A stretch of 64,000 bases of DNA. Origin: an uncultured Chloroflexia bacterium (lineage in GTDB: Bacteria > Chloroflexota > Chloroflexia > Thermomicrobiales > UBA6265). Below are positions 4,191 to 55,151 of this stretch, in pieces. The stretch lies in assembly GCA_963724295.1 (NCBI GenBank), contig CAVRUC010000001.1, positions 159,822 to 223,821 of the forward strand. The letters run 5' to 3'. Position 1 is the stretch's first letter, and each line of letters opens with the position of its first letter. Under the pieces are notes generated by a model. It made no database searches and had not been told where the DNA came from. It worked only from the letters and a program-made list of their open reading frames with translations. A program made the position numbers and the translations under genes.

Positions 4191-4199
4191 AGCCATCGG

Positions 4200-6329: not shown

Positions 6330-6721
6330 ATCTCCGCCGATGAGTCAGTCCCAGGCTCCGACGGAACATCGCGGAGACCAAGCGCCAGCCATAAGGCGAC
6401 GGCGGCGATGACCAGGGTCGCGACGGCGGCGGCGGCCACGAGGAAGATCAGCGGCCCGGGTGCCCCCAGATCGGTCAAGAATTCGAGGAATCGCGACCAG
6501 ATCACCCGCACAGGCATCCGCCGGCCGATCCAGTTGCCTGCTCCGATCCGCAACGTGCCGAAGGCGAGGAAGCCGACCATCGCCAGGACCGATCCGGCCC
6601 ATAGAACCATGAGCAAGCGGGGAAGCGCCGGGAACGACCGGGCGGCCGGCTCGGCCGGCGCCTCGGCAGGCAGGGTACGCGTCTCCTCACGCTGGGCGCG
6701 AGCGACCGTGATGTCAGCCAC
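6326..6721 (-). CDS. Small membrane protein (2-3 TM), operon partner of the GT-C genes
   Basis: 131-aa ORF with hydrophobic stretches LLMVLWAGSVLAMVGFLAF and LIFLVAAAAVATLVIAAVALWLAL. It overlaps both neighbours (8 nt and 4 nt), which suggests translational coupling. Confidence 0.6.
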   Translation of the reverse strand: MADITVARAQREETRTLPAEAPAEPAARSFPALPRLLMVLWAGSVLAMVGFLAFGTLRIGAGNWIGRRMPVRVIWSRFLEFLTDLGAPGPLIFLVAAAAVATLVIAAVALWLALGLRDVPSEPGTDSSAEM

Positions 6722-14003: not shown

Positions 14004-14105
14004 TTAACTTGCCACGCTTGGACGTGATTTCCGGGGTGGGTGTTTCACGCGTCCCAGCGCACCGTCAACAGGACCTCACGGTCGCGTCGGAACTTGGATG
14101 AATCA

Positions 14106-15689: not shown

Positions 15690-15755
15690 GACCGCACCAA
15701 CCGTTTGATATGACGTTGAGCCCGAACATCGGGGCGGGTAGAAGGGAGGAATGAC

Positions 15756-17489
15756 GTGGCAGCGCCAGTCGGGGCCTTCACATTCATGTTGCATAGCCAT
15801 CTTCCATACGCCAGACAGGCGGGGATGTGGCCACACGGCGAGGAGTGGGTGCACGAGGCCATTGCCGAAACCTATGTCCCACTTCTGAACGCTCTCTACG
15901 ACCTGCGCGAAGAGGGCATTGCCTTCCGGCTGACGATCGGCATTACGCCGATCCTCGGCGAGCAGCTGGCCGATCCGTTGATCGTGGAGCACTTCATCGC
16001 CTACGCCGCCGAACGGGCCGCCAAAGCGGCGCTGGACGTGGACCGCTTCGAGCGAGCGGGCGATGTCACATTTCGCGACCTGGCTCGCTTCTATCACCAC
16101 TGGTACGCACGGGTGCTCACGTCGTTCCAGGACAGATTCGGCGGCAATCTGCTTGGCGCGTTCGGCACGTTGCAGGACGAAGGGCTCGTCGAAATCGCCA
16201 CCAGCGCCGCCACCCACGGCTACCTGCCGCTCCTCTCCCGCGATTCCTCGATCCACGGGCAGCTTCACACCGGAGTCGAAACCTACCGCCGATGGTTTGG
16301 GCGGTCGCCGCAAGCGGTCTGGCTGCCCGAATGCGCTTATCGACCCGCGATCATTGAAGACGAAGGTGGGCGGGCTGTGCGCCGGCCTGGCCTGGAATCG
16401 TTCCTCGCCGAGGAAGGGCTACTGGTCTTTTTCAGCGAAACCCACACGGTCGAAGGCGGCCGCCCGGTCGGAATGGCGGTGCCCGGCACGATCGGACCGT
16501 ACGGCATGATCGCCCGGCGCTACGCCTCGACGATCACCCCGCCGGAGCCGGACCAGCAGCTGGCGCCGGGAACCTCGCTTCGCCCCTACTGGGTCGGCGA
16601 CGCCCCGGGGCAAGTGGCCGTCCTGGCCCGGCACGAGCGGACTGGCCAGCAGGTCTGGTCGGCGGCATTCGGGTACCCCGGGGACTTCGTCTATCGCGAG
16701 TTTCACCGCAAGGACGCCGAGTCCGGCATGCAGTATTGGCGGGTCTCCGGGGCGGGCGTTGACCTTGGCCGGAAGCAGCCGTACGACCCACAGCGTGCCG
16801 CCGATCAGGTCCAGTCGCACGCCGACCACTACGTCCACCTGATCGAGGAGCAGCTGCGCGAATTTCACGAGCAAAGCGGCGAGTTCGGCTCCATCACGGC
16901 GTCGTACGATACCGAGCTCTTCGGTCACTGGTGGTTCGAGGGCGTCGATTGGTTGAAGGCGGTCCTGCGCGGGCTTGCCGGGCGGCCGGCTGTCGAGCTC
17001 AGCACGGCGAGCCGGGTCGTCGAGGAGCACCCGCCGCGCGAGGTGCTGTCGCTGCCGGAATCGAGCTGGGGAGCCGGGGGCGGCCACTTCACCTGGCTGA
17101 ACGACGATACAGAGTGGATGTGGCCCTTGATCCACGCCGCCGAACGTCGCATGGAAGACCTCGTCACCCGTTTCCCCAGCTCGGACGGCACCCGTCGCGA
17201 CGTGCTCAATCAGGCTGCCCGAGAGCTTCTTCTCCTGCAGAGCAGCGACTGGCCATTCCTGGTGACCACGCTCCAGGCGAAGGTGTACGCCGTCGAACGC
17301 TTCCAGGAGCACCTCGAACGGTTCGATCAGCTTGCCGCGCTCGCCGAGGCCGGCACCTATTCCGCCGCGGACGAGAACTACCTCGCCGCGCTGCGCGAGC
17401 GCGATAACCCGTTTGCAACGATCGATTATGGGGATTGGGCGCCACGCCAGGGCTACGTCGGGGTGCCTCCCGCGGCGTCTGCTGTCTGA
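15756..17489 (+). CDS. GH57 family 1,4-alpha-glucan branching enzyme
   Basis: GAFTFMLHSHLPYARQAGMWPHGEEWVHEAIAETYVPLL; GH57 plus DUF1957-like C-terminal half (SSDWPFLVTT). GTG start with RBS GAAGGGAGGA. Confidence 0.85.
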   Translation: MAAPVGAFTFMLHSHLPYARQAGMWPHGEEWVHEAIAETYVPLLNALYDLREEGIAFRLTIGITPILGEQLADPLIVEHFIAYAAERAAKAALDVDRFERAGDVTFRDLARFYHHWYARVLTSFQDRFGGNLLGAFGTLQDEGLVEIATSAATHGYLPLLSRDSSIHGQLHTGVETYRRWFGRSPQAVWLPECAYRPAIIEDEGGRAVRRPGLESFLAEEGLLVFFSETHTVEGGRPVGMAVPGTIGPYGMIARRYASTITPPEPDQQLAPGTSLRPYWVGDAPGQVAVLARHERTGQQVWSAAFGYPGDFVYREFHRKDAESGMQYWRVSGAGVDLGRKQPYDPQRAADQVQSHADHYVHLIEEQLREFHEQSGEFGSITASYDTELFGHWWFEGVDWLKAVLRGLAGRPAVELSTASRVVEEHPPREVLSLPESSWGAGGGHFTWLNDDTEWMWPLIHAAERRMEDLVTRFPSSDGTRRDVLNQAARELLLLQSSDWPFLVTTLQAKVYAVERFQEHLERFDQLAALAEAGTYSAADENYLAALRERDNPFATIDYGDWAPRQGYVGVPPAASAV

Positions 17490-19000
17490 TCGAGGAGATC
17501 GGGAAGCAGCGCGCGCAGCGGCAACGCGAGCCAGTCCGGTCGATTCCTCACTTCGTAGGCGACCTCGTAGAGCGCCTTGTCCAGCTCCCAGGCGGCCAGC
17601 GCCCGGGCGAAGGCCGCTTCGTCGCCTGGCACGAATCGCAGTTCGCTAGCGACCAGCGCTTGGCGGTATCCCGCGAGGAACCCGCGGCGGGCCCCCAGCT
17701 CCCAGGACTCGAGCCGGCTCCTCGCCGCAGAGCGGTCCGCGGAAACGCCAGCGGACCGCTCTGCGGCGCCCCGCGCATAGGCAAACGACCGCAGCATGCC
17801 GGCGACATCCTTCAGCACCGACGCTCGTTGACGCCGTTCCTCCAGGGATCGCGCCGGCTCTCCCTCGAAGTCGATGATGACCCAGTCTCCGTCCGGCGTG
17901 CGCAGCGTCTGACCGAGGTGATAATCGCCATGGACGCGGATGCGCCGCGTCCCCAGCTCGTCCCGGTAACCGCTGGCACGCTCGTCAAGCGCCCGCAACC
18001 CCGCGATCGTGTCAGGCAGTCTGCTGGCGATGTCGGGTGGCAGGTGACCCCGGCGCTCCTGGAGGAGCCGGATCGTCTCATCGATCGCGGCTCGGGTGCG
18101 GTCGGTATCTCTGTCGATGGCCGCACGATCGGTCGTCTCGGGGAAAAACCCGGGATCCTGGACCACTCCGAGCGCGACATGCAGCTCGCCAGTCCTCTGG
18201 CCCAGTCGCTGCTCCGCGGCAAACCGGTCGGCCCCCGGGTCGATGTCTCCCGCGGCGACCCCGGCCAGCCGCTGCAGCAGCCACGACCAACCGTCACCGA
18301 TATTCGGGACAAACCCCTGCGCCAGCGCGACCGCGTATGGTGCTCCATCTGCCGAACGCCAGGAAACGGAGCCGGCGTAGCGCGGCACTCGCTCGAACCT
18401 GACGTCAGCCAGCGCGCGCAGGACCTCTTCGTCGGGATTGAGCCCCGGTTGCAGACGTCGAAAGAGCTTGACAATCAGGACGTCGCCGAAGCGCAACGAC
18501 GAGTTGCTCTGCTCCGCCCGAACCACCGTAGGGGGAATGCCACGAGCGGCCGCAATATCGGCACCGGCGGCAGGGTGGGCGGCAAAAGTCCAGTTCCCGT
18601 GCGCCGCGTCATTCGTTCCGGCCACGTGATCGAGCAGCCAGCCGCCAAACCACGGTCGGTCGGTCGCGTCGACGACCACACCAGTAACATCACCGGTCTC
18701 GACCCTGGTGATGGTTTCCGCGGATTCTTCAGATTCGGTCAACGCCAGCGGCAAGAGATAGCGCGCCACGTTTCCATCGCCGAACGTGACCCGCGCTACT
18801 GCCAGCGCGAGCCAGTCCAGGCCGGCGCGCTCGATGAGCGCATCCTCGATCGCCGCCCCAGTGATGCCACGGCCCTTGTCCGCGAACCAGCGACGGGTCT
18901 CCAGCCAGTTCGGCAGCGCTTCGGCGCCGGTTTCGCTGAGCAGGGACCGGATAGCGCTGGCTCTGACCTCATCCGGTTGCAATGCGCCGGATGAGCTCAT
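17453..19000 (-). CDS. pep2: Maltokinase (Pep2/Mak, aminoglycoside-phosphotransferase fold)
   Basis: [60 protein letters not shown] 19000 overlaps the treS stop (ATGA). The 3' end overlaps the convergent GH57 gene by 37 nt. Confidence 0.85.
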
Positions 19001-20655
19001 GCGGAGACGGGAGACGGGCGCTCTAATCTGAACCAATAGAAGCTATGCGGACCGAATGTCAAGAAGTAGGGCAGCTCGCCAATCGGCGGGAACGGCGTCT
19101 CACCGATCAGCTCGATCGGTTGCCACCCGTTGTACGCGCTGAGATCGAGCTGCGATGGTTGCACGAACCTCGAGAGATTGACCACACACAGCAGCACTTC
19201 GTCCGCGTACGCGCGCACGTAGGCGAGCACCGTGCGATTGTCGGCGTTCAAGAATTCGAGCGATCCTCGGCCGAAGGCGCGATACCGCTTTCGGACACGG
19301 ATGATGCGGCGCATCCACTCCAGCAGCGAGGTCGGCAGCCGCTCCTGCGCCTCGACATTGACCGCCTGAAACCCATAGACCGGGTCGGCGATGACCGGCT
19401 CATACAGCCGCGCGGCATCGGCCCGGGAGAAGCCGGCGTTCCGGTCGCCTGACCATTGCATCGGGGTCCGCACCCCGTTGCGATCGCCGAGGAAAACGTT
19501 GTCCCCCATCCCCAGCTCGTCGCCGTAATAGAGCACCGGCGTGCCTGGCAGTGACAGCAGCAGCGAGTTCATGAGCTCGATCTTGCGGCGACTGTTCTCG
19601 AGCAGCGGCGCCAACCGGCGGCGAATACCGAGGTTGCGTCGCATCATTGAGTCTTTCGCGTACTCGGAATACATATAGTCGCGCTCTTCGTCGGTGACCA
19701 TCTCCAATGTCAGCTCGTCGTGGTTGCGCAGGAAGATCGCCCACTGCGCGTTCTCCGGAATAGGCGGCGTGCGGTTCATGATCTCGACGATCGGGATCCG
19801 GTCCTCGCGGCGGATGGCCATGAACATGCGCGGCATGACCGGGAAATGGAACGCCATGTGGAATTCCGGTTCTTCAGGTGTCCCGAAGTACTCGACGACG
19901 TCTTCCGGCCACTGGTTGGCCTCGGCGAGCAGGATCTTGCCCGGAAACTCCGTGTCGACCATCTGCCTCAGGCGCTGCAGGAACTCGTGTGTCTCGGGAA
20001 GGTTCTCGCAGATCGTTCCCTCCCGCTCGATGAGATACGGCACGGCATCACAGCGGAACCCGTCCAGACCCATGCCCAGCCAGTAGCGAACGATGTTCAG
20101 CATCTCTTCCTGGACGGCCGGGTTGTCGTAGTTGAGATCAGGCTGGTGGCTGAAGAAGCGATGCCAGAAGTAGAGACCGGCTTCCGGGTCATACGTCCAG
20201 TTCGAGACCTCGGTATCGATGAAGATGATGCGCGCGTCCGGGTAGCGGGTCGGGTCATCGCTCCAGACGAAGTAATCCCGATAGGGCGACTCCGGATCCT
20301 TGCGAGCTTCCTGAAACCAGGCATGCTGGTCAGAGGTGTGGTTGACGACCAGATCGGCGATGACCTTCAGCCCGCGCTCGTGCGCCGCGTCGAGCAGCGC
20401 CTTGAAATCCACAACGGTTCCGTAATCGTGGTGGATGCTCATGAAATCGGCGATGTCGTAACCGTCATCCTTGTACGGCGACGGATACATCGGCAAGAGC
20501 CAGATGCAATCGACGCCAAGCTGCTTGATGTAATCGAGTTTCTCGGTCATGCCCCGGAAGTCGCCGATCCCGTTGTTGTCGGAATCGAAGAACGATTTGA
20601 CGGGCGCTTCGTAAAACACCGCGTCCTTGAACCAGAGCGGGTCGCTACTCATCAT
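18997..20655 (-). CDS. treS: Trehalose synthase / maltose alpha-D-glucosyltransferase (GH13)
   Basis: [67 protein letters not shown]...[10 protein letters not shown]. Confidence 0.9.
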
Positions 20656-42521: not shown

Positions 42522-43274
42522 GTGCCGACATTTGGCTGCGCCTACTGGGGACGCGACGCGAGCGTCGCCGACCGCGATTTCGCCTCACTGCCGGAACTCG
42601 GATTTTCCTGGGTCGTCATTCCCGTCTCGACCGAGCGCATGCGCTACGACCGCGCGGGTACGGCCGCGGTGTTCGCCGCGGCGAACCGCCACGGACTCGC
42701 CACCCGAATTGCCCCCTGGGGAGTCGGCGGCCTCTTCGGCGGCGAGGGGGTGGTCGAAGCCGGTCCCTCACCGATGGCAACGCTGACCTGGTGGTTGTCG
42801 TGCGCCCACGATCTGGAGCCCGACGCCCTGTTCTGGGGCGAGCCGCACGGCGCGCTCGGTTTGGGGGCCATGGCGCGCGCGATGACGACCTGGGACATCC
42901 CCGGCGCCGCGCAGTACCTCCACGTCAACCCGAATCGCGGCGAGTGGCCCGAGCTGCCGGTCGCGACGGCGCTGACCGGAATCGGCATCGATGCCTACCG
43001 CAAGCCGGCGGTCGCCATCGCGCGGCTGCCCGAGGTGCGCAAGCGATATGGCCTGCCGGTGCATGTCTGGGTGCGCAGCTTCGGACTGACGAGAAGACAG
43101 ACGTTGCAGCCGGCGCGCGATCTCTCCGCCTTGTACGACGCGGGTGTCGCCGATATCGGGATCTGGGGCTTCCCTTCGGCCGGCTGCTCCTGCCTGGACA
43201 ACGCCGAGCCGCAGCGGGTCTGGAACGGGATCACGGCGACGATCGCGCGGCTCGGCGAAGCGCTGGCCGCGTGA
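42522..43274 (+). CDS. Hypothetical protein (possible TIM-barrel hydrolase-like)
   Basis: GTG 42522 lies 8 nt after GGAAGGAG. The 250-aa ORF has protein-like composition and I recognise no family. Confidence 0.5.
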   Translation: MPTFGCAYWGRDASVADRDFASLPELGFSWVVIPVSTERMRYDRAGTAAVFAAANRHGLATRIAPWGVGGLFGGEGVVEAGPSPMATLTWWLSCAHDLEPDALFWGEPHGALGLGAMARAMTTWDIPGAAQYLHVNPNRGEWPELPVATALTGIGIDAYRKPAVAIARLPEVRKRYGLPVHVWVRSFGLTRRQTLQPARDLSALYDAGVADIGIWGFPSAGCSCLDNAEPQRVWNGITATIARLGEALAA

Positions 43275-43578
43275 CGTGGTGACGAAGGCCGGCTGACTCG
43301 CCGGACGGGGCGACTCGCCGTCCCGAGTTACCTGGGCCTGGCTGCAAACGCCGGCACGTGACGATCACTAGCCTCCCAGGTTGAGACAAGGACTTGCGAA
43401 AGCTCTCCACCCGCGAGGAGCCACGGCTGTCAGAAGGTGGCGCTTGTCCGCCTGCTCGGAGCGTGTCCGGGCGGCGGTTACAGGCTGGCATGCCATTGAC
43501 AGCAGCGTGCCGGGAGCCGAGACTCTATGAGGCAGTCGTAAAGGCGAAGGGCGGCTGCCTACTCATCGATCGTGTGCT

Positions 43579-44157
43579 GTGGAGAATCGATTGTCCTGGC
43601 TGCTGCTGGCGCTGCAGGTGGTCCTGAGCGTCGTGCTCCTTGTCGCCGCCACCGAGAAGACGCTGCGCTCCGAGGAATTCTTCGCCGCGCTGCGCCTCAG
43701 CCACCTGCCGGCAGGCGCGATCGCGCCGATCGGCGTCGCCGTGCCGGTGCTCGAGCTGACGCTGGCGCTGGCGCTGCTGCTCGCGCCGGGGCGGTGGCTG
43801 CCGCTCGTGTTCCTGGCGGCCGCCCTCGTCTTCGGCGCCTTCACCGCCTGGATGGGCTGGGTGCGTGCGCGCCGGCTGCGCGTCCGTTGCGGCTGCTTCG
43901 GCCCCGGCGGCGGGCACGTCGGCTCTCGCACGATCGGGCGCAACCTCCTGCTGCTGGCGCTGGCGCTGGGCGGCACCGTGCTGGCGGGCCAGACGCCAAC
44001 TCCGCTGCCGGGTCCCTCGCTGGCGATGGTGGTCACCGTGACCTCGGTCGGCGCCTGCCTCGCCCTCCTGCTCGCGCTGCGCGCCGCCTGGCCGCACCTG
44101 ATCCTCAGCTTCGAGCAATACCAGGCGCGCCAGGCCGTCGCGACCGGCGGGGAGTAA
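43579..44157 (+). CDS. MauE/DoxX-family redox-associated membrane protein
   Basis: 192 aa with 4-5 TM segments and the motif RLRVRCGCFGPGGG (the C-x-C-F-G motif typical of MauE-like proteins). Confidence 0.7.
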   Translation: MENRLSWLLLALQVVLSVVLLVAATEKTLRSEEFFAALRLSHLPAGAIAPIGVAVPVLELTLALALLLAPGRWLPLVFLAAALVFGAFTAWMGWVRARRLRVRCGCFGPGGGHVGSRTIGRNLLLLALALGGTVLAGQTPTPLPGPSLAMVVTVTSVGACLALLLALRAAWPHLILSFEQYQARQAVATGGE

Positions 44158-44161
44158 ACGG

Positions 44162-44833
44162 ATGTCGACCCTCTTCTACGTCTCGTACGTCGCGCTCTGG
44201 GTGCTGCTGCTGACGATCGGCGTGCTCGTGCTGTTGCTCTATCGCCACTTCGGCGTGATGTCGCTCGGCACGCTGGAGGGGGTGCAGCGGGACGGTCTGC
44301 CGATCGGCTCGGTCGCTCCTCCCATCAGCGGAATCACCGCTGCCGGCCAGGACACCCGTTGGCAGCCGAAGCAAGGCCAGCCCCAGCTCCTCCTCTTCGC
44401 CGCCCCCGACTGCGAGCCGTGTGCCACCGTCCTCCCCCACGTCGAGCGGCTGGCACATGCGGTGAACGGCGGCCTCGGGATCGCGGCGGTCGTGCCGGGA
44501 CCAAAGGACGAAGTGACCCGGTTCGTCGAGCGCTACCGCCCGTCCTTTCCCTGCCTGGCCGAGGACGGCAGCGGCGCCTTTACCCGTTATAAGGTGCGCG
44601 TCACCCCGTTCGGGTTCATCCTCGGCACCGATGGCCGCGTCCTTGCGAAGGGGCTCTGCGGCGATCAGGTGCGGCTGCGCGGGCTGCTGGAGGCCGCCGA
44701 CCTGAGCGACATCGCCCAGGCGCTGCCGGCCCCGGCTCAGCCGGTCCAGATCACGCCGCGGAAACCGGTACCCGCCGGGCGGCGTTCTACGGTCGGGTTG
44801 TCGAACAACGGCGTCGACGGGAGCGAGCGGTGA
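44162..44833 (+). CDS. Membrane-anchored thioredoxin-fold protein (TlpA/MauD-like), CxxC = CEPC
   Basis: N-terminal TM LFYVSYVALWVLLLTIGVLVLLLY, then a redoxin fold with LLLFAAPDCEPCATVLP and VRVTPFGFILGTDGRV. It starts 5 nt after the MauE-like stop. Confidence 0.75.
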   Translation: MSTLFYVSYVALWVLLLTIGVLVLLLYRHFGVMSLGTLEGVQRDGLPIGSVAPPISGITAAGQDTRWQPKQGQPQLLLFAAPDCEPCATVLPHVERLAHAVNGGLGIAAVVPGPKDEVTRFVERYRPSFPCLAEDGSGAFTRYKVRVTPFGFILGTDGRVLAKGLCGDQVRLRGLLEAADLSDIAQALPAPAQPVQITPRKPVPAGRRSTVGLSNNGVDGSER

Positions 44834-44855
44834 TGCGGCTAGGGATGGGGAAGCT

Positions 44856-45383
44856 ATGACGACGGTCGAGCGCGTCGGCGAGGGACTGGCGCGGCAACTC
44901 AATCGGCGACAGACGTTGAAGCGGGCGGCGGTGGCCCTCTTCGGAGCGGTGGCCGCCTGGACGGTCGAGGGCTTCCGCGGCAACAGCGCCCTGGCCGACC
45001 ACTGCGCCGTCGTGACCGAAGGCAACTGCACCTGCACCCCGCCCGAGGGGATCTACTGCAACAGTCTGGACCCCTCGTACTGCGCTGGCGCGGCCTGCGA
45101 CGGCGGCTGCTACTACGACGAGTCGTATCGCTACGCCGGCGCCTGCTGGTGCAGCGCCATCTGCGAGTACGGTGGCGGCGAGTTCGGCCACTACCAATGC
45201 TGCGACTGCAACTGTTACGGGCAGCTGTGCGCCTGCCGGGAGTTCATCTCGACCGGCTACAGCGAAGAAGTCGTGACGGCGCCGCCGAGCGAAGCCGGCC
45301 CGCCCTTGCCGCCCCCGGGGTTCGGCGACGACGAGCCCCAGCTGCCGCCGGGCGTCGAGTCGTGCTTCCCGTTCTGCGACTGA
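44856..45383 (+). CDS. Tat-exported cysteine-rich protein (18 Cys in a mature region of about 127 aa)
   Basis: Tat motif NRRQTLKRAAVALFGAVAAW with an ALA-DH cleavage-like site. Mature region: HCAVVTEGNCTCTPPEGIYCNSLDPSYCAGAACDGGCYYDESYRYAGACWCSAICEYGGGEFGHYQCCDCNCYGQLCAC...SCFPFCD. Confidence 0.7.
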   Translation: MTTVERVGEGLARQLNRRQTLKRAAVALFGAVAAWTVEGFRGNSALADHCAVVTEGNCTCTPPEGIYCNSLDPSYCAGAACDGGCYYDESYRYAGACWCSAICEYGGGEFGHYQCCDCNCYGQLCACREFISTGYSEEVVTAPPSEAGPPLPPPGFGDDEPQLPPGVESCFPFCD

Positions 45384-45474
45384 CCGGGCGAGCGTGACGA
45401 TGTTCGCCACCGCGGTCATGCTGCTGGCCGTGCTGACCGGACTCCTGAGCGCGCACGCCCCCTGAACGGTCAAC

Positions 45475-46042
45475 ATGGCCGTTGGCCTGGGCCTCCTCGG
45501 TCGAGGAGGGAAACGACAGGCGCTCGGTTTGTGGGCGCTCCACATGGCAGGGGCCGCCCTGGCCGGCGCGCTCCTCGGCGGGCTGGTGGGCGGAATCGGC
45601 GCGCTGGCGGGGTTGGAGGCGTGGCGGCCCTGGATCATCGGCGGCGCCGCCCTTCTCGCCTTCGGGCTCGCCCTGCTGCCGCGGCCACCGAAGCTGGGCC
45701 GGCAGCGGCAGGTGCCGCGGCGGTGGGCGCCGGGGACGCCTCCCGCGCGCGTCTATCTGATCTGGGGGGCGATGCTCGGCAGCGGCGTCGCCACGCCGAT
45801 CTTCCACACCGCCTTCCTCCTCCTCCTTGCCGCCCAGCTCACGGGCGGGGTGGCGCTCGGCCTCGTCTCCGGCGCCCTGTTCGGCGCGGCCCGGCAGGCG
45901 ACGGCACTGCTTGCCGCTGCTGACCCGCCTCGACCCGGGTCGGACGATGGGTCTGCTGGAGACGCTCCGCCCCACCGCCCGCCGCCTGAACGCGGGGCTC
46001 ATCGTCGCCGGCGGCCTCGTCCTCGTCCTCGTCGGCCGCTGA
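45475..46042 (+). CDS. Polytopic (5-6 TM) membrane protein. It has a frame break near 45913 and a possible N-terminal extension to ATG 45400 through an in-frame TGA (45463-45465).
   Basis: Track ORF 45475.. is membrane-like up to ...GALFGAARQATALL. The plausible C-terminus PLLTRLDPGRTMGLLETLRPTARRLNAGLIVAGGLVLVLVGR-stop lies in the +1 frame (track ORF 45827..46042). Upstream and in the same frame, ATG 45400 encodes MFATAVMLLAVLTGLLSAHAP-TGA-TVN-ATG(45475). ATG 45475 has no Shine-Dalgarno sequence. Confidence 0.5.
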
Positions 46043-46100
46043 CTCTACCCCGCGTCGGGGAACGGCTCTCGCGTCCCGGTCCTGTTGTGGAGCTTGCTAC

Positions 46101-46538
46101 ATGGGGACGATCACCGTACGCCAGGCCACGCCTGACGACGCCATGGAATTGGCGCGAATGCTGGACCTGTTCGACCGCACGGGTGCCACTCCCGAGCAGG
46201 TCGCCGCGCGCATGCTGGCCTGCCAGAGCGTGTTGACGACCTATCTCGGCGAGATGGACGGGCAGGCGGTCGGCTTTGCCTGCTTGCGGCTGGTGCCACA
46301 CATCCAGGGCGACGAGCCGTATGCCGAGCTGACCGACATCTACGTCGACGCGCCGTTTCGCCGCCACGGCGTGGCCCGCGCGCTGATCGCTCAGCTTGAA
46401 GCGACGGCGCGGGCTGCCGGCGCCAGCGAGGTGGTGATCATCACCGGCTTCGACAACGAGGACGCCCAAGCGGCGTATCGCGCCGTCGGATACGACAATT
46501 GGGCGCTGGCGATGCGGAAGCGCTTCCCGGACGACTGA
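46101..46538 (+). CDS. GNAT family N-acetyltransferase
   Basis: 145 aa; AELTDIYVDAPFRRHGVARALIAQLEATARAAGASEVVI (acetyl-CoA-binding R/Q-x-x-G-x-A motif). Confidence 0.85.
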   Translation: MGTITVRQATPDDAMELARMLDLFDRTGATPEQVAARMLACQSVLTTYLGEMDGQAVGFACLRLVPHIQGDEPYAELTDIYVDAPFRRHGVARALIAQLEATARAAGASEVVIITGFDNEDAQAAYRAVGYDNWALAMRKRFPDD

Positions 46539-48187: not shown

Positions 48188-48338
48188 GAGGCGGGGTCCT
48201 TTGTGTTGGCTGTTTCATTGTGCCGGGGAAGACCTGCTTCCTGATGGGCGGGCAAGGCTGCGGCTCTGATCTCTGCAACTTCCAGGGTCGTCGAAAAGGC
48301 CAAGAATCAGTGCGCAGCCGGTCGACGTACTCATCCCT

Positions 48339-49265
48339 CTAGGGCTTTGTGGCGTCCTCCATGTGGATAAGCTGCTCGGTCTGGTGAGTACCCTGAGCGA
48401 TCCTCAACGTCGTACGTTCTGGTTGGCCTGGTTGCTCAGTGTTGACCATGAACAGTTGCTCGTCTCCGACCGTCGTCTCCCCCCACGAGACATGCGCAGT
48501 GCCGACGAGCCCATGCTGCAACGGTATCGGGGTCATCCTCAGATCGCACTCGATTTCGACCTTGATTGCCCGCACGCGCCATTTAGTGCCATAGGTGTCG
48601 ATCAGGTAGCAGCCAGGGACAAGCTCAAACATTGCAGTTGCCCGGCTCCGGTCCTGATTCGCGTAGAAGAAGTCCATCAAATTCTTGCCCGACTCCGGCC
48701 GCCGCAGCACCTGTTCTGCTAGCTCCCCGACAGGCCCGGCTTTCTCGTCATCCTTTGAGTAGAGTGGTTCACCAAGACCCACCTCGGGCTCCTCAGGGTG
48801 CCCGTACTCTTCTGCCAATACTGCGCGACACTTCACGATATTGACGTTGAATCGACCAAGGAACACCTCCTTGAGTTTACTGACCTTCCCCGCCCAGTCA
48901 GATTCGATAGCTTCCTGCAGGTCCATCGTTTCAATACCAAACTTTTCCGCTTCATTCAGGGCGTTCTTTGTGAACCCGGTCCGGGATACGAGGATCAGTT
49001 TGTCTGTCCGGTGCTCATGCTTGCCGCGCATCTCCTGCACCCACCCAACGTCAGCAGCGCGACTCCGGTCGCGAACTTCGACTCCTATCTGCAGGGTAAT
49101 TTGGCCTGCTGGTTCTTCGATCAAGATGTCGACTTCTTGCGCTTTGCCTCCGAGCCGATCCGGAACCATGGCGGACTCGCTGACTGTAGCGCGATCATGG
49201 AGTTGGCGATGCAGTAGATAGATCAGGCGTTGGAATTCGTTCGAACGTCTCGGCATGTCAACCAT
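48339..49265 (-). CDS. Restriction-endonuclease-like (PD-(D/E)xK, Mrr-cat-like) N-terminal domain protein with an unknown C-terminal domain
   Basis: 308-aa ORF in the low-GC island. NEFQRLIYLLHRQL...AQEVDILIEE...IGVEVRDRSRAADVGWVQEMRGKHEHRTDKLILVSRTGFTKNAL matches the D...E-x-R/K core plus helper pattern of REase-like folds. Confidence 0.55.
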   Translation of the reverse strand: MVDMPRRSNEFQRLIYLLHRQLHDRATVSESAMVPDRLGGKAQEVDILIEEPAGQITLQIGVEVRDRSRAADVGWVQEMRGKHEHRTDKLILVSRTGFTKNALNEAEKFGIETMDLQEAIESDWAGKVSKLKEVFLGRFNVNIVKCRAVLAEEYGHPEEPEVGLGEPLYSKDDEKAGPVGELAEQVLRRPESGKNLMDFFYANQDRSRATAMFELVPGCYLIDTYGTKWRVRAIKVEIECDLRMTPIPLQHGLVGTAHVSWGETTVGDEQLFMVNTEQPGQPERTTLRIAQGTHQTEQLIHMEDATKP

Positions 49266-49353
49266 CTACCCCGTATCTTTCATTAGCCTATATCGAGTTG
49301 AGTCAATTGTCCCATGCTCAGTCAAAGACCTTAAGCTGAAGTCAGCGGCGTGA

Positions 49354-51876
49354 CTAGCCAATCTGCACGTTGAGAATCCGCAAATGATGAAGCGTCTCGT
49401 CTATGCGTTCTTGGTCGCCGATCCTGCTCCAGATCGGAAGTGCCTTTTGCAAAGCCTTGCGAGCGCCAACCAAGTCGCCTTGCTGTACGAGAACATTTGC
49501 GAGGTTTCGATTGTAAATTGCAATCCCGCGACTATCCTCTCCAGCGGTCTTTTCTGTAATCCTGATCGCGCGTTCAAAACGGTCCCGCGCGCCGGCGAGA
49601 TCTCCCTCAGATTGCAAGATATCTGCAATATTGTTCAGCGAAGTTGCTACTTGCGGATGATCTGGTCCGAACTTGGTTTCTCGAATGCGGAGGGCACGCT
49701 CATGCAGCTCCATCGCTTCGTTGGTATTACCTATACCTCGAAGGAGGTTTGCAAGGCTATCCAGGTCAGGCGTTACCGCTGGATTGTCAACGCCGTATGC
49801 CGTCTCATCGATCGCTAGTGCACGTTCAATATTGGCTCTTGCATCCTTGGTCCGGCCTTGCTTCATTAGTACCCGGGCCAACTTGAGAAGGGCAACTGCA
49901 ACCATCGGGTGGTCAGCCCCGTAGATCATTTCATTGAGATAAAGTGACCGCTGTAACAGCGCGCGAGCAGGCCGTAGTTCTCCTTGATCACTAAGAACGT
50001 CCCCTAAATTGCCGAGGGCGATAGCGACCTCCCGGCTCTCAGCGCCATCAATTCGTTCATGAATTCGGAGCGCCTGCTCCAGCACATTCCGTGCGGCCCG
50101 GTTATCTCCCTGCCGTCTGAAGACAATGCCGAGATCATTAAGCGCTGTCGCGACGTCCGAGTGCTCAGGACCGAATACCCTCATTCGAATGGATCGAACT
50201 TCTTGAAGTAGCCCTCGAGCCGCCTCCAACTTTCCTTGATCCCGTAAGATGTTGCCCATCAGTGCTAAGTCTGTTGCCGTCTCCGGATGCTCTTTCCCGT
50301 GCGCTGCCTCGTCGATGGCGAGTGACCTCTCGATGGCCTGCAGCGCAGCGGGTAGGTCTCCTAGATCCCGCAGGATACGGGCGAGATGATGAAGACCTAT
50401 CGCTTGGTCAACATGATCGCGGCCGAGTTCGCTCTCCGAGAGCATGAGAGCATGCTCTAGCATCGGACGCGCCTCTTCAGGTCGGCCCCGCGCCGCCAGA
50501 TGAACTCCAACGCGGCCATTGAGTCTCGCGACCGCCAAGCCGGTGAGGCCTATTTCGGTTCCATGTTGCATCACGGCCAGAGCGTGAGGCAGGATCCGTT
50601 CCCAACTGGGCCAGGTTCGCGGATCGTATCCCTCGTCTGGCAATGCGGCTGCCACGACGTAAGCCGCGGCCGCAGCCCATGCCCGCTGCTGGTCTCGAGT
50701 AAGGTGATCCTGCACTACAGCCTGGACGAGACGGTGAACAGACACCGTCTGGTCGTTAATTACCTCCACGAGAGAATAACGGCGAAGGGCCACAACGGCG
50801 TCATCTAGAGCAACCCGGTCCTTCACGGTCGCTCGGAGTGGCTCGGCCAAGGCCTCAGCACCTGCCATGAGCAACTCGAGCGGAATCGCGTCCGGAGCGA
50901 GGAAGGCAAAGATCTCCAATAGACCTTCTGCCGCCGGTGCCTGGTCGGCCGCTCCCTCGAACGCCAACTCCCACGCTGTGGCAACGGTGGCTTCGTAGTC
51001 GGTCAACTCACCTCGCTTCAGCACCTCCCGACGCTGCGTGCGGAACCGCTCCAGATACCCCTCAAGGGTCAACACGCGAGCGTTGATGTAGGCTGCCGCC
51101 TGCGAAAGTGCGAGAGGCAGGTATCCCAGTTCCTCGGCCAGTGTCGTCGCTGACGCTTCGTTCGGCTGCCCTGTCCGGGTCAGTAGGAATGCTATTGCTT
51201 CGGCCGGCGGTAGAACGGGAACCGCCATCGCTAGCACGTGCGGGGGCCAATTCGGGTTGAGAGACGTGACAACCACATGTCCGAAACCAACCGTCGGCAG
51301 ATACGGCTCCAGGATCGACGGATGATCCGCGTTGTCGAACACCAGCAGGTACCGCTGGCCCCCGCGGTCCAGCCAGCGACGAACCGCCAGGATCGTCTCC
51401 TCCTGAGCTTGGCGTGCAGCCTCAACGGTCGTTGACTGGTCCTGAACCACGGCCTCGGGGAGCCCAAGTTCGCGAGCAAGGGACGCAAAGTCGGCAGCGA
51501 GCGTGGACTCATCTTGGGCTCTGATCCACCAGATTACGTCATAGATTCCGGCATGGCGGTAGGCGTACTCGATGGCGATTTGGGTTTTGCCCATTCCACC
51601 TAGTCCATGAAGTGCAACTAGTTGAACTGGGTCCGATGTGCCGCTTGAAGTCAATGACTCATGCAATTGCGCTATCAGATCCACTCTGCCAGTAAAGTTG
51701 GGATTCCGACGATGGGGAAGATTGCTAACACGCTTAGCGATTCCGTGTCCGGAAGTCCTACCCGGCACACTAGCGGAGCTTGAAGACTCGGTTTGTGGAG
51801 ATACGCTTGGGATGTAGAGTGTGCCCAGAACCTCAAATGCGAAGGCAGCTGCGTGCCGGATGCAGTAACTTGCCAA
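49354..51876 (-). CDS. STAND NTPase: NB-ARC ATPase plus about 9 TPR (TPR_10/12-type) repeats. This is the intact 840-aa part of a larger PNP-NB-ARC-TPR gene.
   Basis: Walker A LHGLGGMGKTQIAIEYA and Walker B YLLVFDNADHP. Repeated 42-aa units follow (e.g. ATALNDLGIVFRRQGDNRAARNVLEQALRIHERIDGAESREV). The N-terminal ASYCIRHAAAFAFEVLGTLY continues the PNP domain encoded upstream. Confidence 0.85.
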   Translation of the reverse strand: MASYCIRHAAAFAFEVLGTLYIPSVSPQTESSSSASVPGRTSGHGIAKRVSNLPHRRNPNFTGRVDLIAQLHESLTSSGTSDPVQLVALHGLGGMGKTQIAIEYAYRHAGIYDVIWWIRAQDESTLAADFASLARELGLPEAVVQDQSTTVEAARQAQEETILAVRRWLDRGGQRYLLVFDNADHPSILEPYLPTVGFGHVVVTSLNPNWPPHVLAMAVPVLPPAEAIAFLLTRTGQPNEASATTLAEELGYLPLALSQAAAYINARVLTLEGYLERFRTQRREVLKRGELTDYEATVATAWELAFEGAADQAPAAEGLLEIFAFLAPDAIPLELLMAGAEALAEPLRATVKDRVALDDAVVALRRYSLVEVINDQTVSVHRLVQAVVQDHLTRDQQRAWAAAAAYVVAAALPDEGYDPRTWPSWERILPHALAVMQHGTEIGLTGLAVARLNGRVGVHLAARGRPEEARPMLEHALMLSESELGRDHVDQAIGLHHLARILRDLGDLPAALQAIERSLAIDEAAHGKEHPETATDLALMGNILRDQGKLEAARGLLQEVRSIRMRVFGPEHSDVATALNDLGIVFRRQGDNRAARNVLEQALRIHERIDGAESREVAIALGNLGDVLSDQGELRPARALLQRSLYLNEMIYGADHPMVAVALLKLARVLMKQGRTKDARANIERALAIDETAYGVDNPAVTPDLDSLANLLRGIGNTNEAMELHERALRIRETKFGPDHPQVATSLNNIADILQSEGDLAGARDRFERAIRITEKTAGEDSRGIAIYNRNLANVLVQQGDLVGARKALQKALPIWSRIGDQERIDETLHHLRILNVQIG

Positions 51877-52546
51877 CCTTCAGCGTCGGTTACGCTCTTT
51901 CCTTCGATAAGGTCTGAAATTCCCCGAATAACAAGTGCATCCGTTCGTAAATTAGCCCGAATCGCCTCCAGAAAACCGAAGCCCTCCATCTCTACAGCAG
52001 CGGCGTCACTGTAATTCTCTCGGAGGAACTTGTAGACCGGGGACCGCGTCGACGCGACAATTTCGCACCAGCGGCTACGGGCTTGACAATGGCATCAGGT
52101 AGTAACTCTGGAGCGGTGGGTAGAATGCGTTTCTGCCAATTCTGGTTGCGAGCGACGGCTCTAGCGCGTTGTTCCATTCGGTAAGACGAAAAATGCAATT
52201 CTGGGCGAGCGTAGAATTCCACAGCCGCCTTACCAGATTCATACTCATAGACTTTCGTGGCCGCAACAACTCCACCGAGTTGGACATCCTTAAGGCCTCC
52301 CGCGATCCCAACGAACAATGCGACGTCAGGAGAAAAGTTCGCTATGGCCCTCTCAGTTTCGAACGAAGCCCGAACGTTTCCCATCCCGATCTGCGCGATC
52401 GCTACTGTCCAAGATAGTTCCCCTACGGTGAATCCCTCGTTCGTAAACGGTGCCTGCGGGATGCGTTTCTTCTGTGATATCGTCAATATGATCCCGTACG
52501 GCCTGGAACTCCTACAGGTATCCGTCAGAATGACTGCGGTCGGCAT
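51877..52546 (-). pseudogene. PNP_UDP (purine/uridine nucleoside phosphorylase-like) effector domain of the STAND protein, broken by at least 4-5 frame changes
   Basis: Stitching three minus-strand frames gives MPTAVILT..PVEFQAVRDHIDDITEETHPAGTVYERG/FTVGELSWTVAIAQIGMGNVRASFETERAIANFSPDVALFVGIAGGLKDVQLGGVVAATKVYEYESGK...PVAAG/EIVASTRSPVYKFLRENYSDAAAVEMEGFGFLEAIRANLRTDALVIRGISDLIEGK..DAEGWQ/YCIRHAAAFAFEVL. Breaks lie near 52505-52525, 52433-52440, 52057-52064 and 51868-51880. Confidence 0.75.
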
Positions 52547-52702
52547 TACATCACGCCCGCAGGTTGAAAGATCACGCGGCTCATGCGTTGTCTCCGGATA
52601 CACTGGCAACTTGACCTTAAGGAGTCTTGACGCCATGGACCTTCGAGCGGCAAAACCCAGTCTCTGGACTACGAAGCGTTCGGGCCATAGAACGCGTACC
52701 AC

Positions 52703-53296
52703 TTGGGTCGTGGCTTGACGCTCAACATTGGCGCGACGCAAGCATACCTTCGCGGTGGACTGACGCTATTTGAAACATACGAGGTGGAAGATGGACCGGA
52801 GGAAGGCTGGCCATGCCCGCCAGAGCAATATGCGACGATAGTAGAGACTGCTCAGTCATTTGTTGGGCTCCGAGTGGTTGCCCTTGGCAGGAAGCAGCTG
52901 ACCACGCCAGTGCCTGGTTTCAAGGAGATTCCGCCCGTCGGTGAACCGTCCCACGTCGTACTTCCTCAGGAGATTACGTTCAGAATCGGACAGTTTGTGG
53001 CCAAAGGTCCACAGGTGGCCGCATACATAGTCTATGTTGGCGATACGATTCGTCACTATGCCGCTGTGATATCAGGTGTAACCTATCAGAACATTGACCA
53101 GATCGTCGCGGCACAATTCGTCTCGAATGTCTTTGAATGGGTAAGTTATGGGAAGGTTGGTCCTACATTTCTTGATGAGTTGGTGGCGGGCGATACTGCC
53201 AAATTCAAACCCGCCTTCTTTCTAGAGAACCTCCGAGATGCGATCGACTCAGTAGTTAGTGGAGTACTTCGTTCCCATCATCACTTTGTGAACTGA
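52703..53296 (+). CDS. Hypothetical protein (island orphan)
   Basis: 197-aa ORF divergent from the STAND gene, with protein-like composition (YATIVETAQSFVGLRVVALGRKQL...YIVYVGDTIRHYAAVISGVTYQNIDQIVAAQFV). I recognise no family and the start is uncertain. Confidence 0.45.
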   Translation: MGRGLTLNIGATQAYLRGGLTLFETYEVEDGPEEGWPCPPEQYATIVETAQSFVGLRVVALGRKQLTTPVPGFKEIPPVGEPSHVVLPQEITFRIGQFVAKGPQVAAYIVYVGDTIRHYAAVISGVTYQNIDQIVAAQFVSNVFEWVSYGKVGPTFLDELVAGDTAKFKPAFFLENLRDAIDSVVSGVLRSHHHFVN

Positions 53297-53346
53297 AAGT
53301 TGATGTCTTTGGAGGGCGAATCAGACTACTCATCTCGAGCAGATGA

Positions 53347-53998
53347 ATGCGTATAAGAATGATGGCGAAAGCGTGGAGGAAATTAAAAGATACCTCAAGC
53401 ACAGTGGATGAAATCTGTATGGAGTTTACCAGTGGTGTGATTGCCAGCTATTCCACTCTAGACATGTTGTATCAGCTTTGGGTGCTTGTTGTGCGAACAC
53501 CGTTTGGGGGTCCAGATTTTCCAAATAAGCTTCACTTCCCTGACAGCAATCCTGGGGACTCCCTCAAAAAATGGAACGTGTCAGTGCCGCAAGGTTTACA
53601 GCTTCCTGACCTTGCCCGAGCCATCCCCAATCTCTCGAAAGGTCACTTCGCTGATTTGCGAAAGCTCAGAAACGATCTCGTTCACAACATGGCCTCTGAC
53701 GATGTTAGAGCGTTGGTTTATATAGGAATTGGGCTCCCTCGCGATTAACGGACGGTCCCTGCAGTACGCTCACTACCTGACTCGGGACATCGAAAAAGGG
53801 GGCGACTCTGTGACGCACCCCTGGGTCCGGAGATTCTACCAACAGCAGCGCGATGCACAAGAGGAACTGTATCGATGGAATCTAGAGATAACGCAGTGTG
53901 TAATTGATACACTCGAGTGGCTAAGCATCTATTTGAAGTATGTGGCCGGGCTTGAAGGAACTGAGGATCGTGATTACGTGAGACAAGAGCCTCTCTGA
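53347..53998 (+). CDS. HEPN-domain protein (Rx4H motif). It is apparently split by one frame change near 53728-53735.
   Basis: ORF 53347..53748 contains HFADLRKLRNDLVHN (R at 53668-53670, H at 53683-53685, R-N-D-L-V-H). The overlapping ORF 53729..53998 (LGSLAINGRSLQYAHYLTRDIEKGG...) continues plausibly as the same protein (...ALVYIGIG/SLAING...). Confidence 0.6.
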
Positions 53999-54099: not shown

Positions 54100-55151
54100 G
54101 TGCAGACCCGAGACGAGATCGGCTAACGACGCTCGCCAGCTGCGCTGGCTGAGCGGCCAAATTGGGCCCGGCGGCCCTGGCGCAGGTACTGCGTCCGTTG
54201 ACCCTCGCCACCCACCCGGATCTCGTCGTCGGTCTCCAGACCAGCGACGATGCCGCGGTCTATCGGATTGCGCCCGATCTGGCGGTCGTGCAGACGGTCG
54301 ATTTCTTCACCCCGATCGTCGACGACCCCTGGACCTACGGCGCCATCGCCGCCGCCAACAGCATGAGCGACGTCTACGCCATGGGCGGCACGGTCCTCTT
54401 CGCCCTCAATGTCGCCGGGTTCCCGGAGGACCTGCCGCCGCAGATGATCACCGCCATCTTCCAGGGCGCGGCGGAGAAGGTCGCCGAGGCCGGCGCCATC
54501 ATCGCCGGTGGGCACACCGTCACCGATGCCGAGCCGAAGTTCGGGCTCGTCGTCACCGGTACGATCCATCCCGACCAGGTCTGGACCAAGGCCGGCGCGC
54601 TCCCGGGCGACGTCCTCTTCCTCACCAAACCGATCGGCACCGGCATCGTCGCCACCGCGCTCAAGAATCAGAAAGCGCGCGCCGAGGACGTCGAGGCCGC
54701 CACGGCATCGATGCTGACCCTCAACCGCGCCGCCGCCGAGACGGCGAGAGCGGCGGGTGGCGTTCACGCCGCGACCGATATCACCGGCTTCGGTCTGCTC
54801 GGGCACGCCAGCGAGATGGCGGACAAGAGCGGCGTTGGTCTGCAGATCAACGCCTGGGCGGTCCCGCTCCTGCCCGGGACGGAGGGGTACGCCGGGGCCG
54901 GTCTCATCGCCGGTGGTCTGGGGCGGAATCGGGACTACTTCGCGCACCATGGCGGCGGGATTCGTTTCGATCCCAACGTGGAAGCCGTGCAGCAGACCAT
55001 CCTCTTCGATCCGCAAACCTCCGGCGGTCTCCTCTTCGCCGTCGATGCCGGTCAGGCCGATGCCTTCGCAACCGCGTTCACCGCCGCCGGCATCCCGCTC
55101 TGGCGCATCGGCCAGGTCGTCCAGGGCGCGGGCATCGACGTTTCCCCGTGA
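54100..55151 (+). CDS. selD: Selenide, water dikinase (selenophosphate synthetase), selenocysteine-containing form. One frame discontinuity lies at 54120/54121.
   Basis: Track ORF 54162..55151 is clearly SelD (DFFTPIVDDPWTYGAIAAANSMSDVYAMGG...ATDITGFGLLGH). In the same frame upstream: R-L-T-T-L-A-S-C-A-G-TGA(54150-54152)-A-A-K-L-GPAALAQVL, which is the SelD N-terminal loop with Sec in place of Cys. That frame has no start codon. GTG 54100 (RBS AGGAAG) encodes VQTRDEI in the +1 frame, and one extra C at ATC|GG would give ...DEIRLTT. Confidence 0.85.
54157..54180 (+). promoter_or_regulatory. Candidate bacterial SECIS hairpin for the selD UGA
   Basis: CCA-(AATT bulge)-GGGCC-CGGC-GGCCC-TGG. The apical loop lies 17-20 nt after the UGA and contains G. 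Confidence 0.5.

Follow-up and report, generated by a model that had tools for sequence, protein, structure and literature searches.

A conserved operon of soil Chloroflexota that may combine MauE-type disulfide formation, a cysteine-rich exported client and a candidate membrane selenoprotein

What does a gene pair resembling mauE and mauD do when no methylamine dehydrogenase (MADH) is encoded beside it? The question is raised by a 64,000-nucleotide stretch of DNA from an uncultured Chloroflexia bacterium of the Thermomicrobiales (assembly GCA_963724295.1, contig CAVRUC010000001.1, positions 159,822 to 223,821), hereafter the window, in which four genes follow each other at positions 43579-46042. 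An initial annotation, made from the sequence alone, had read these genes as a redox-maturation module with a mauE-mauD-mauA-like order, serving an exported and heavily cross-linked protein of unknown function. This remains the best reading, with the MauE- and MauD-like assignments and the synteny holding up, and the analogy with the mau clusters is not supported at the level of MauA, neither by profile comparisons nor by the predicted fold. We conclude, with a probability that we put at roughly 60%, that the locus is an operon dedicated to oxidative folding outside the cytoplasm and that it encodes the client protein as well. The last of the four genes appears to encode a hitherto undescribed membrane selenoprotein.

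All four genes are carried on the plus strand and are separated by gaps of only 4, 22 and 16 nt, in agreement with the close co-directional packing described initially. Gene 1 (43579..44157) encodes a MauE-type membrane protein of 192 residues, gene 2 (44162..44833) a 223-residue thioredoxin-fold thiol:disulfide oxidoreductase resembling MauD, TlpA and ResA, gene 3 (44856..45383) a cysteine-rich exported protein of 175 residues, and gene 4 (45400..46042) a polytopic membrane protein and candidate selenoprotein that has 213 residues after reconstruction from its orthologues, counting the TGA as selenocysteine and omitting one surplus base. A consensus scan of positions 43200-46300 for promoters and terminators found none, such consensus sequences being uninformative for this phylum.

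It is clear from a survey of other genomes that the gene order is kept. Scanning with one genome per species gave 18 loci in Chloroflexota and Actinomycetota (Gaiellaceae), and another 31 metagenome loci, found by way of gene 4, share the arrangement where their contigs extend far enough. The order gene 1-gene 2-gene 3 recurs in every locus with a contig of sufficient length, it is also found around gene 3 relatives of just 30-40% identity, and a MauE gene and a thioredoxin-fold gene still lie upstream of the very distant gene 3 relatives P0237 and P0350. Gene 4 follows gene 3 in 10 of the 18 genome loci, and the complete four-gene order is kept in more than 30 loci of Chloroflexota and Actinomycetota, confirming the co-occurrence expected from the initial annotation. 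The distant gene 4-like loci L046-L049, for which the retrieved DNA lacked the N-terminal selenocysteine segment, were set aside. We are dealing with a conserved operon of soil Chloroflexota, in an order beyond chance.

Two variants of the locus were observed. A distant version of the operon, in L053 (2336-6100) and L054, has three additional conserved open reading frames (ORFs) without Pfam hits, two of 142 and 180 residues upstream of the MauE gene and one of 126 residues between gene 3 and the candidate selenocysteine gene, and a sigma factor of the extracytoplasmic function type is encoded on the opposite strand in the surroundings. In L044 (2244-4001) a member of a gene 4 clade with the motif NAHVP-TGA-TVNM lies behind a gene for a LuxR-type response regulator, and genes 1-3 were not found within 3.4 kb upstream.

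Genes 1 to 3: MauE- and MauD-like proteins and a cysteine-rich neighbour

Gene 1 matches the Pfam family MauE (PF07291) with 74.9 bits (E=9e-21, cut-off 27), its residues 6-133 corresponding to profile positions 2-126 of 128. It carries a CGCFG motif at residues 104-108 (43888..43902, plus strand) that fits the CXC-F-G active-site signature, so that both the profile score and the presence of C104-G-C106-F-G bear out its first description as a MauE-type membrane protein with a C-x-C-F-G motif. Gene 2 scores 33.8 bits with AhpC-TSA and 29.1 bits with Redoxin, above the respective cut-offs of 26 and 26.6, and its best match in NCBIfam is TIGR02661, MauD, with 50.3 bits, which is below the equivalog cut-off of 188.6. 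The CEPC active-site motif is found at residues 84-87 (44411..44422, plus strand) and the N-terminal stretch is hydrophobic, which we read as a probable membrane anchor; the assignment as a thioredoxin-fold protein with CEPC was therefore correct. Gene 1 is regarded as a putative quinone-linked disulfide generator.

In a recent preprint MauE was described as a general DsbB-like disulfide-forming enzyme, in that MauE proteins of two phyla complement an E. coli dsbB deletion through their CXC motif, and the CXC-F-G active-site signature was established by mutagenesis (Gonzalez et al. 2026, bioRxiv 10.64898/2026.03.05.709764). According to the same work MauA is present in only 10.2% of the species bearing MauE. 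In Streptomyces, mauE genes, with or without mauD, lie beside precursors with at least eight cysteines in candidate clusters for peptides that are made by the ribosome and modified after translation (RiPPs) (PMC7794033). The occurrence of MauE and MauD without MADH is ordinary and less surprising than was assumed initially. What is specific to the loci studied here is the fixed association of the pair with the client family of gene 3.

In gene 3 each of the features listed at the outset could be verified, namely a length of 175 residues, the RRQTLK motif for twin-arginine translocation (Tat) at residues 17-22 (44904..44921, plus strand), 18 cysteines, the QCCDCNCYGQLCAC run and W98 as the sole tryptophan past the leader. 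The protein consists of the Tat-type leader, likely cleaved in ALA-D after residue 47, a cysteine-rich domain of ~85 residues, a proline-rich tail and a C-terminal CFPFCD. Its 99 close homologues are almost all without a name, the named ones coming from metagenome-assembled genomes (MAGs) of Thermomicrobiales, and an exhaustive search with a hidden Markov model (HMM) expanded the family to 146 clusters at 50% identity. Members are mostly 130-170 residues long and have in common the leader M..VER.GE.LAR..RR.FL and the four motifs C.C.PP.G.YC, GCWC[TS], GYY.CCDC.C and C.C..F. When 132 family sequences were aligned, C60, W98, C115, D117 and C125 were invariant, ten further cysteines were conserved in at least 90% of the members, and R17 and R18 were kept to the same extent within a leader consensus RRxFLxR. 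None of the 132 members matches any Pfam family.

The number of cysteines after the leader is even in 125 of the 132 members and ranges from 10 to 28 without being confined to multiples of four. Therefore all-paired cysteines, that is disulfides, are expected in this family, and the parity would argue against free thiols, against a single Cys-Trp cross-link and against iron-sulfur clusters ligated by all cysteines. Of the two possibilities first entertained for the gene 3 product, a heavily cross-linked protein or one bearing a metal or cofactor, the former thus stands and the latter is weakened by the even counts. A structure prediction with AlphaFold from 87 close homologues was unusable, with a predicted local distance difference test (pLDDT) score of 44, and was replaced by one from the 132 diverse sequences, which gave a mean pLDDT of 83.5 and values above 90 for residues 50-135. 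Foldseek, which is weak on small disulfide-rich folds, found no convincing match of this model in the PDB (best E=1.4, template modelling score at most 0.2), and sequence and profile searches of the PDB with gene 3 gave nothing meaningful. Gene 3 would accordingly found a broad unannotated family, with a predicted fold that is confident and without a neighbour in the PDB.

Some observations on the gene 3 family are added here. In the n-region of the leader (44856-44996) the residues E9, A12 and R13, located before the twin arginines, are kept in at least 90% of the members and the region is predicted to be helical, which suggests recognition by a chaperone or a processing factor; no gene for such a factor was found in the operon. 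Two tandem copies of the gene 3 homologue are present in L009 (4875-6018) and L015 (3-910). The database entries P0327, P0047, P0062, P0084 and P0095-P0099 are frameshifted or chimeric, P0327 joining the N-terminus of gene 3 to the C-terminus of gene 4 and P0084 extending from gene 3 into the 21 codons that precede the TGA of gene 4, and they are artefacts of assembly or gene calling in high-GC metagenomes.

The Streptomyces clusters point to one way of reading the operon differently, namely as a gene cluster that makes a secreted bioactive mini-protein, for example a bacteriocin, an inhibitor or a signal, where the disulfide machinery serves the maturation of the product and has no housekeeping role. 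MauE, with or without MauD, adjoins precursors with at least eight cysteines there (PMC7794033), and the unusual conservation of E9, A12 and R13 in the leader n-region, the tandem duplicates of gene 3 in L009 and L015 and a C-terminal CC in many family members would all fit such a product. However, the Streptomyces precursors have only 57-66 residues and lack the gene 3 family motifs, the operon contains no gene for a protease, an exporter or immunity, and a fold of ~85 residues that is conserved over two phyla is atypical of fast-evolving toxins. We regard a mini-protein cluster as rather unlikely, and since it concerns the end use of the product only, it would be compatible with oxidative folding as the activity of the operon.

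The in-frame TGA of gene 4 and the selD gene

Gene 4 had been taken for an ORF without cysteines encoding 5-6 transmembrane segments. Hydrophobicity does suggest about six helices, but gene 4 is not a simple ORF, an in-frame TGA and a frameshift having been overlooked. The frame starting from the ATG at 45400 reads MFATAVMLLAVLTGLLSAHAP, then TGA and then TVNMAVGLGLL... in the same frame. The TGA (45463..45465, plus strand) would be a selenocysteine codon at residue 22, in the context HAP-U-TVNM, and is present in 36 of 36 loci. Because this TGA and one extra base further downstream break the frame, gene 4 appears among the ORFs as two pieces, 45475-46236 and 45827-46042. The TGA follows ..(S/T)AH(A/S)P in the window and in 35 other loci, among which are distant ones with altered contexts (SAHAP-TGA-PINM in L050, ARAP-TGA-IPNV in L053 and TSTA-TGA-GINM in L052). 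Across 33 distinct sequences it is the third codon position that varies most, upstream as well as downstream of the TGA and in one frame, the entropies of the three codon positions being 0.10/0.28/1.07 upstream of the TGA and 0.18/0.07/0.66 in the three codons that separate it from the next ATG, where Asn is encoded by AAC in 28 sequences and by AAT in 5. TGA otherwise acts as a normal stop and terminates genes 2, 3 and 4.

A hairpin resembling a selenocysteine insertion sequence (SECIS), CCUCCUC-GGUC-GAGGAGG, is located at 45492..45509 on the plus strand and starts 26 nt past the UGA. In the 33 distinct sequences 89.6% of its cells are paired, compared to 55-68% when the 3' partners are slid, compensatory changes are seen in five of the seven pairs, none of 500 shuffles attains these values, and the GGU of the loop is invariant. 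The local fold has a z-score of -3.47. In L016 the 5' arm has changed from CUC to CCC, replacing Leu by Pro, and the 3' arm answers with the synonymous changes CGA to CGG and GGA to GGG, so the pairing is apparently kept even at the cost of a change in the protein. The hairpin is in keeping with the well-known SECIS element of E. coli fdhF, where SelB recognises a G-U that is located in the apical loop and has a constant spacing to the UGA. Searches of Rfam gave no hits, neither for the window at gathering scores nor for the hairpin region at E<=10. Nothing comparable to gene 4 and no AP-U-T-x-N motif is contained in a 2026 inventory of 119 prokaryotic selenoprotein families (PMC13188914), and nothing specific on selenocysteine in Thermomicrobia or Chloroflexi was found in the literature.

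A second gene of the window bears on the decoding of UGA. The gene for selenide, water dikinase, selD (54100..55151, plus strand), which had been overlooked initially, lies 8 kb downstream of the operon and is predicted to encode selenocysteine itself. Its ORF at 54162-55151 matches TIGR00476 with 351 bits against a cut-off of 125 and NF002098 with 315 against a cut-off of 299. Upstream of this ORF the frame continues through an in-frame TGA at 54150-54152 on the plus strand (..LASCAG-U-AAKLGPAAL), the resulting UxxK being the motif of SelD of the selenocysteine type (PMC13188914). The hairpin GCGCAG-GUA-CUGCGU at 54180-54194 (plus strand) begins 27 nt past the UGA, which places its GGU within one base of the position found in gene 4. 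Because the window holds a selenocysteine-type selD with a TGA, the UxxK motif and a similar hairpin, we take it to mean that the organism, or a recent ancestor, decodes UGA as selenocysteine.

Could the TGA of gene 4 nevertheless be a real stop? In that case a hydrophobic peptide of 21 residues would be followed by a 188-residue membrane protein starting from the ATG 9 nt downstream, with the hairpin serving translational coupling or mRNA stability. Several observations agree with this and weigh against selenocysteine. All database entries are called from the downstream ATG and have 188 residues, the homologues of gene 4 that were listed beginning in 120 of 120 cases after the TGA, at the following Met, and an ATG or GTG lies directly behind the TGA in most loci. 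A form of gene 4 with cysteine was found neither by a TGY pattern scan of metagenome contigs nor with an N-terminal profile, which returned truncated forms only, and in the absence of such a homologue the customary Cys/Sec pairing test fails. Finally, a tRNA scan revealed no tRNA gene of any kind within the window, hence no tRNA-Sec (selC), and the SelA and SelB families of Pfam revealed no selA or selB there. Against a stop codon, the three codons that lie between the TGA and the ATG keep their amino acids and vary synonymously (ACG, ACA, ACT or ACC for Thr and AAC or AAT for Asn), L016 has GTC at the position of the ATG, both pieces are in one frame in 36 of 36 loci, loop and spacing of the hairpin equal those of the selD element in the same genome, and only the joined protein aligns with the DsbD_TM family from profile position 3-5, with the selenocysteine on the catalytic Cys. 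Taken together we find a true stop improbable and consider gene 4 very probably a selenoprotein gene.

The resemblance to DsbD_TM (PF02683) was seen when U was written as C, upon which three of four gene 4 orthologues matched this Pfam family (E=8e-5, 0.004 and 0.018), the matches beginning at profile position 3-5 and covering the N-terminal half of the protein. Two gene 4 fragments bear the JGI label 'thiol:disulfide interchange protein'. His19 and His48 are conserved near the selenocysteine, His19 being lost in the distant loci L052 and L053. We propose that gene 4 is remotely like CcdA and DsbD_TM, without filing it as a member of the CcdA family, and that it might work like one with a single selenol.

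The relation to CcdA has its own counter-evidence. The best DsbD_TM score is 22.4 bits, below the cut-off of 27.1, and one of the four orthologues gives no hit. Alignment of gene 4 by hhalign to CcdA of T. thermophilus, the sequence being taken from 5VKV, has a probability of only 0.75% over 91 aligned columns; in this low-probability alignment U22 falls opposite the Cys of LSPC, and LGRGGKRQ of gene 4 is matched to LGGARGRP of CcdA. A profile search of the PDB with gene 4 misses CcdA, and at the site of the second CcdA cysteine all gene 4 orthologues have Ile, Val or Leu (ATP-I/V/L), so that with a single redox residue the two-Cys cycle of CcdA cannot run. The matches that the PDB search did return are confined to Gly/Ala-rich stretches of prion proteins and were rejected as compositional. 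In NCBIfam, the selenoprotein models included, gene 4 is unmatched even at E<=10.

In the window itself gene 4 is not intact. One extra base within GCTTG at 45909..45913 (plus strand) shifts the frame in this copy only, all orthologues reading straight past the site, and the conserved C-terminus is found in a different frame after the extra base and ends at 46042. In selD the N-terminal part is one base short near 54120, so that the GTG start at 54100 is no longer in frame with the rest, while the orthologue in L001 is intact. In a comparison with the syntenic locus L001, at 86-92% nucleotide identity, no indels were seen in genes 1 and 2 or in the mannitol dehydrogenase gene, and gene 3 has only indels that keep the frame. 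Both frameshifts hit genes linked to selenocysteine. They may be a coincidental sequencing error, or they may mark early decay of the selenocysteine trait. Since gene 4 as well as selD is interrupted by a one-base indel, this genome may lack a fully working system. Indel errors or pseudogenes do occur in such assemblies, as is seen from L003, a MAG of the same project as L001, where the gene 2 orthologue (7330-8001) departs from the window by three single-base indels.

Proposed mechanism and remaining alternatives

The mechanism that we propose builds on the computed family assignments of genes 1 and 2, the synteny, the recoding signature of gene 4 and the even cysteine count of gene 3; which way the electrons flow, which partners gene 4 has and what role the folded gene 3 product plays are what we infer. 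Judging from its family and from the experiments cited above, the MauE-type protein of gene 1 would make disulfides de novo at the membrane by means of CGCFG, in a DsbB-like manner, and on the same grounds the MauD/TlpA-like protein of gene 2 would use CEPC to carry them to the client as DsbA does. Adjacency and cysteine parity suggest gene 3 as this client, with a compact domain of ~85 residues in which 12-16 conserved cysteines would all be paired. Gene 4 would contribute a second redox activity, its single selenocysteine taking, in the first membrane helix, the place of the first of the two catalytic Cys of CcdA. From this weak homology it would most likely reduce or reshuffle wrong disulfides via a selenenylsulfide intermediate, and having one redox residue it might form a mixed selenenylsulfide with a partner or a dimer with a diselenide. 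We lean slightly towards the view that gene 4 founds a new prokaryotic selenoprotein family, CcdA-like, with one intramembrane selenocysteine and no Cys relatives, that it acts with MauE and MauD on gene 3, and that it does so as a reductase or isomerase of disulfides with a lone selenol at the membrane surface, unlike the two-Cys relay of CcdA and DsbD.

At the level of the operon there are also points that speak against this scheme. Only adjacency connects gene 3, as a substrate, to the first two genes, and the Tat route is an uncommon one for proteins whose oxidative folding takes place outside the cell. Gene 4 is missing after gene 3 in L004, L010, L011 and L015 and lies apart from genes 1-3 in L044, and it must therefore be accessory.

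The Tat leader would be explained if gene 3 were instead a metal or iron-sulfur protein that is loaded in the cytoplasm, with genes 1, 2 and 4 providing metal and thiol homeostasis and gene 4 transporting a thiophilic ion in the manner of the MerT-type selenoproteins. Cofactor-bearing proteins are the usual Tat cargo, the CxC, CC and CxxxC patterns of gene 3 are reminiscent of metallothioneins, His19 and His48 are conserved near the selenocysteine of gene 4, and membrane selenoproteins linked to transport, MerT-like and YeeE/YedE, are known (PMC13188914, Table 1). This explanation has to contend with cysteine counts that are even, spread over 10-28 and not multiples of four, with the finding of a ferredoxin-type motif or a Pfam metal-binding domain in none of the 132 family members, with neighbouring genes that form a disulfide-forming pair, and with the loss of His19 in the distant loci L052 and L053. 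We give it little credence.

The initial annotation had left room for a specific relation between gene 3 and MauA, and this relation did not survive. The HMM Me-amine-dh_L (PF02975) gave no hit to gene 3 at E<=1 and no match in any of the 132 family members, and hhalign to the MADH light chain, using the Paracoccus sequence checked against 2BBK_L, reached probabilities of just 0.2-0.7%. No light chain of MADH or of aromatic amine dehydrogenase (AADH) is among the 50 Foldseek matches listed for the gene 3 model. A visual alignment of the cysteine patterns of MauA and gene 3 (W...C...CC...CxC) was rejected for want of hhalign support. Two other initial statements were found to be right. Me-amine-dh_H and CCP_MauG are unmatched among the more than 30 ORFs of the window that were scanned, so neither mauB nor mauG was found, and of the two conserved tryptophans that tryptophan tryptophylquinone needs only W98 is present. 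That gene 3 could be a diverged MauA-like small subunit with a Trp-derived quinone or a different covalent cofactor, whose maturation would depend on MauE and MauD as in MADH, is in accordance with the mauE-mauD-client order of canonical mau clusters, with the long Tat-type leader and the many cysteines common to both proteins, and with an invariant Trp between cysteines (CWC) and an invariant Asp in CCDC, but it is very improbable in view of the failed HMM, hhalign and PDB profile searches, a confident model structurally unmatched to MADH light chains, one conserved Trp only, an even cysteine count that speaks against a single Cys-Trp cross-link, the absence of mauB, mauG or any other modifying enzyme from operon and window, and the generalist nature of MauE and MauD.

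If gene 4 is a selenoprotein, the MAGs of soil Chloroflexota and Actinomycetota gain a membrane-embedded and apparently obligate selenocysteine family in their selenoproteome; no report of selenoproteins in them was found in the literature consulted. Gene callers cut every member of this family at the UGA, which makes it invisible in current annotation. The MauE pathway, a DsbB analogue shown only in 2026, would here be linked with one specific client as well as with an arm that may be reductive or isomerising, and a compact system of four genes would make the role of selenium in oxidative protein folding directly testable. The gene 3 family, with its 146 clusters and no Pfam model, is a clean target for structural and functional work.

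Other features of the window are less closely connected to the operon. Between the mannitol dehydrogenase gene and selD there is an island of low GC content (48300-53800, 52-59% compared to 65-70% elsewhere), which on the minus strand encodes a Mrr-type restriction endonuclease (48339-49265), an 840-residue protein with NB-ARC/AAA_16 and TPR domains (49354-51876) and, just upstream, a protein with a PNP_UDP_1 phosphorylase domain (51992-52741). The interval between mannitol dehydrogenase and selD is ~3.9 kb in L001 and 6 kb in the window, and the region looks like an inserted defence or mobile island. An alpha-glucan cluster at 14040-20655, encoding a 4-alpha-glucanotransferase of glycoside hydrolase family 77 (GH77), a branching enzyme of family GH57, a protein carrying a maltokinase N-terminal cap domain and an enzyme of the alpha-amylase family, is ordinary housekeeping. 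On the minus strand at 2653-8270 three large ORFs of 403, 709 and 518 residues with a high GC content at third codon positions have no match in Pfam or NCBIfam at E<=1e-5.

Comparison with known systems

With the classical mau clusters the operon shares a MauE membrane protein and a thioredoxin-fold protein of the MauD type, followed by a client with several disulfides and a Tat-type leader. It differs from them in that the gene 3 client shows no relation to MauA, whether HMM, profile or fold is compared, and has one conserved Trp instead of two, in that the window has no mauB or mauG and gene 2 reaches only 50 of the 189 bits for the MauD equivalog, and in that a candidate selenoprotein is encoded behind the client. 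Closer to the present case is the MauE pathway of Gonzalez et al., in which the CXC-F-G motif, a thioredoxin-fold partner and the lack of MauA are likewise seen. Their pathway is a generalist, whereas MauE is here fixed with one client family and often with a selenocysteine membrane protein.

The candidate clusters found in Streptomyces by decRiPPter (PMC7794033) are similar in having mauE, and once also mauD, beside a small secreted precursor with at least eight cysteines, in genomes without other mau genes. In contrast to gene 3 these precursors have 57-66 residues and lack CWC[ST] and CCDC, and neither a family with a Tat-type leader nor a selenoprotein is reported for them.

As regards gene 4, its size, a hydrophobic pattern suggesting about six helices, an N-terminal G-x-L-S-x-x-x-P-[C/U] followed by a basic loop and a genetic context of thiol-disulfide chemistry are features in common with CcdA and DsbD (5VKV). 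Unlike these proteins gene 4 scores under the family cut-off and would have selenocysteine instead of the first catalytic Cys, and it has Ile, Val or Leu at the site of the second Cys of CcdA (TPC, helix 4), therefore the canonical two-Cys relay cannot operate. UGA recoding with a downstream hairpin and a redox or thiophilic context would be shared with the known membrane and redox selenoproteins, and there are precedents for selenocysteine in membrane proteins in the MerT-like, YeeE/YedE and SO_0444 families and in the rhodanese/DsbD fusion TsoB (PMC13188914). Gene 4 differs from all of these in fitting no listed family and in having no Cys relatives among the sequences found, and it may represent a selenoprotein family of its own.

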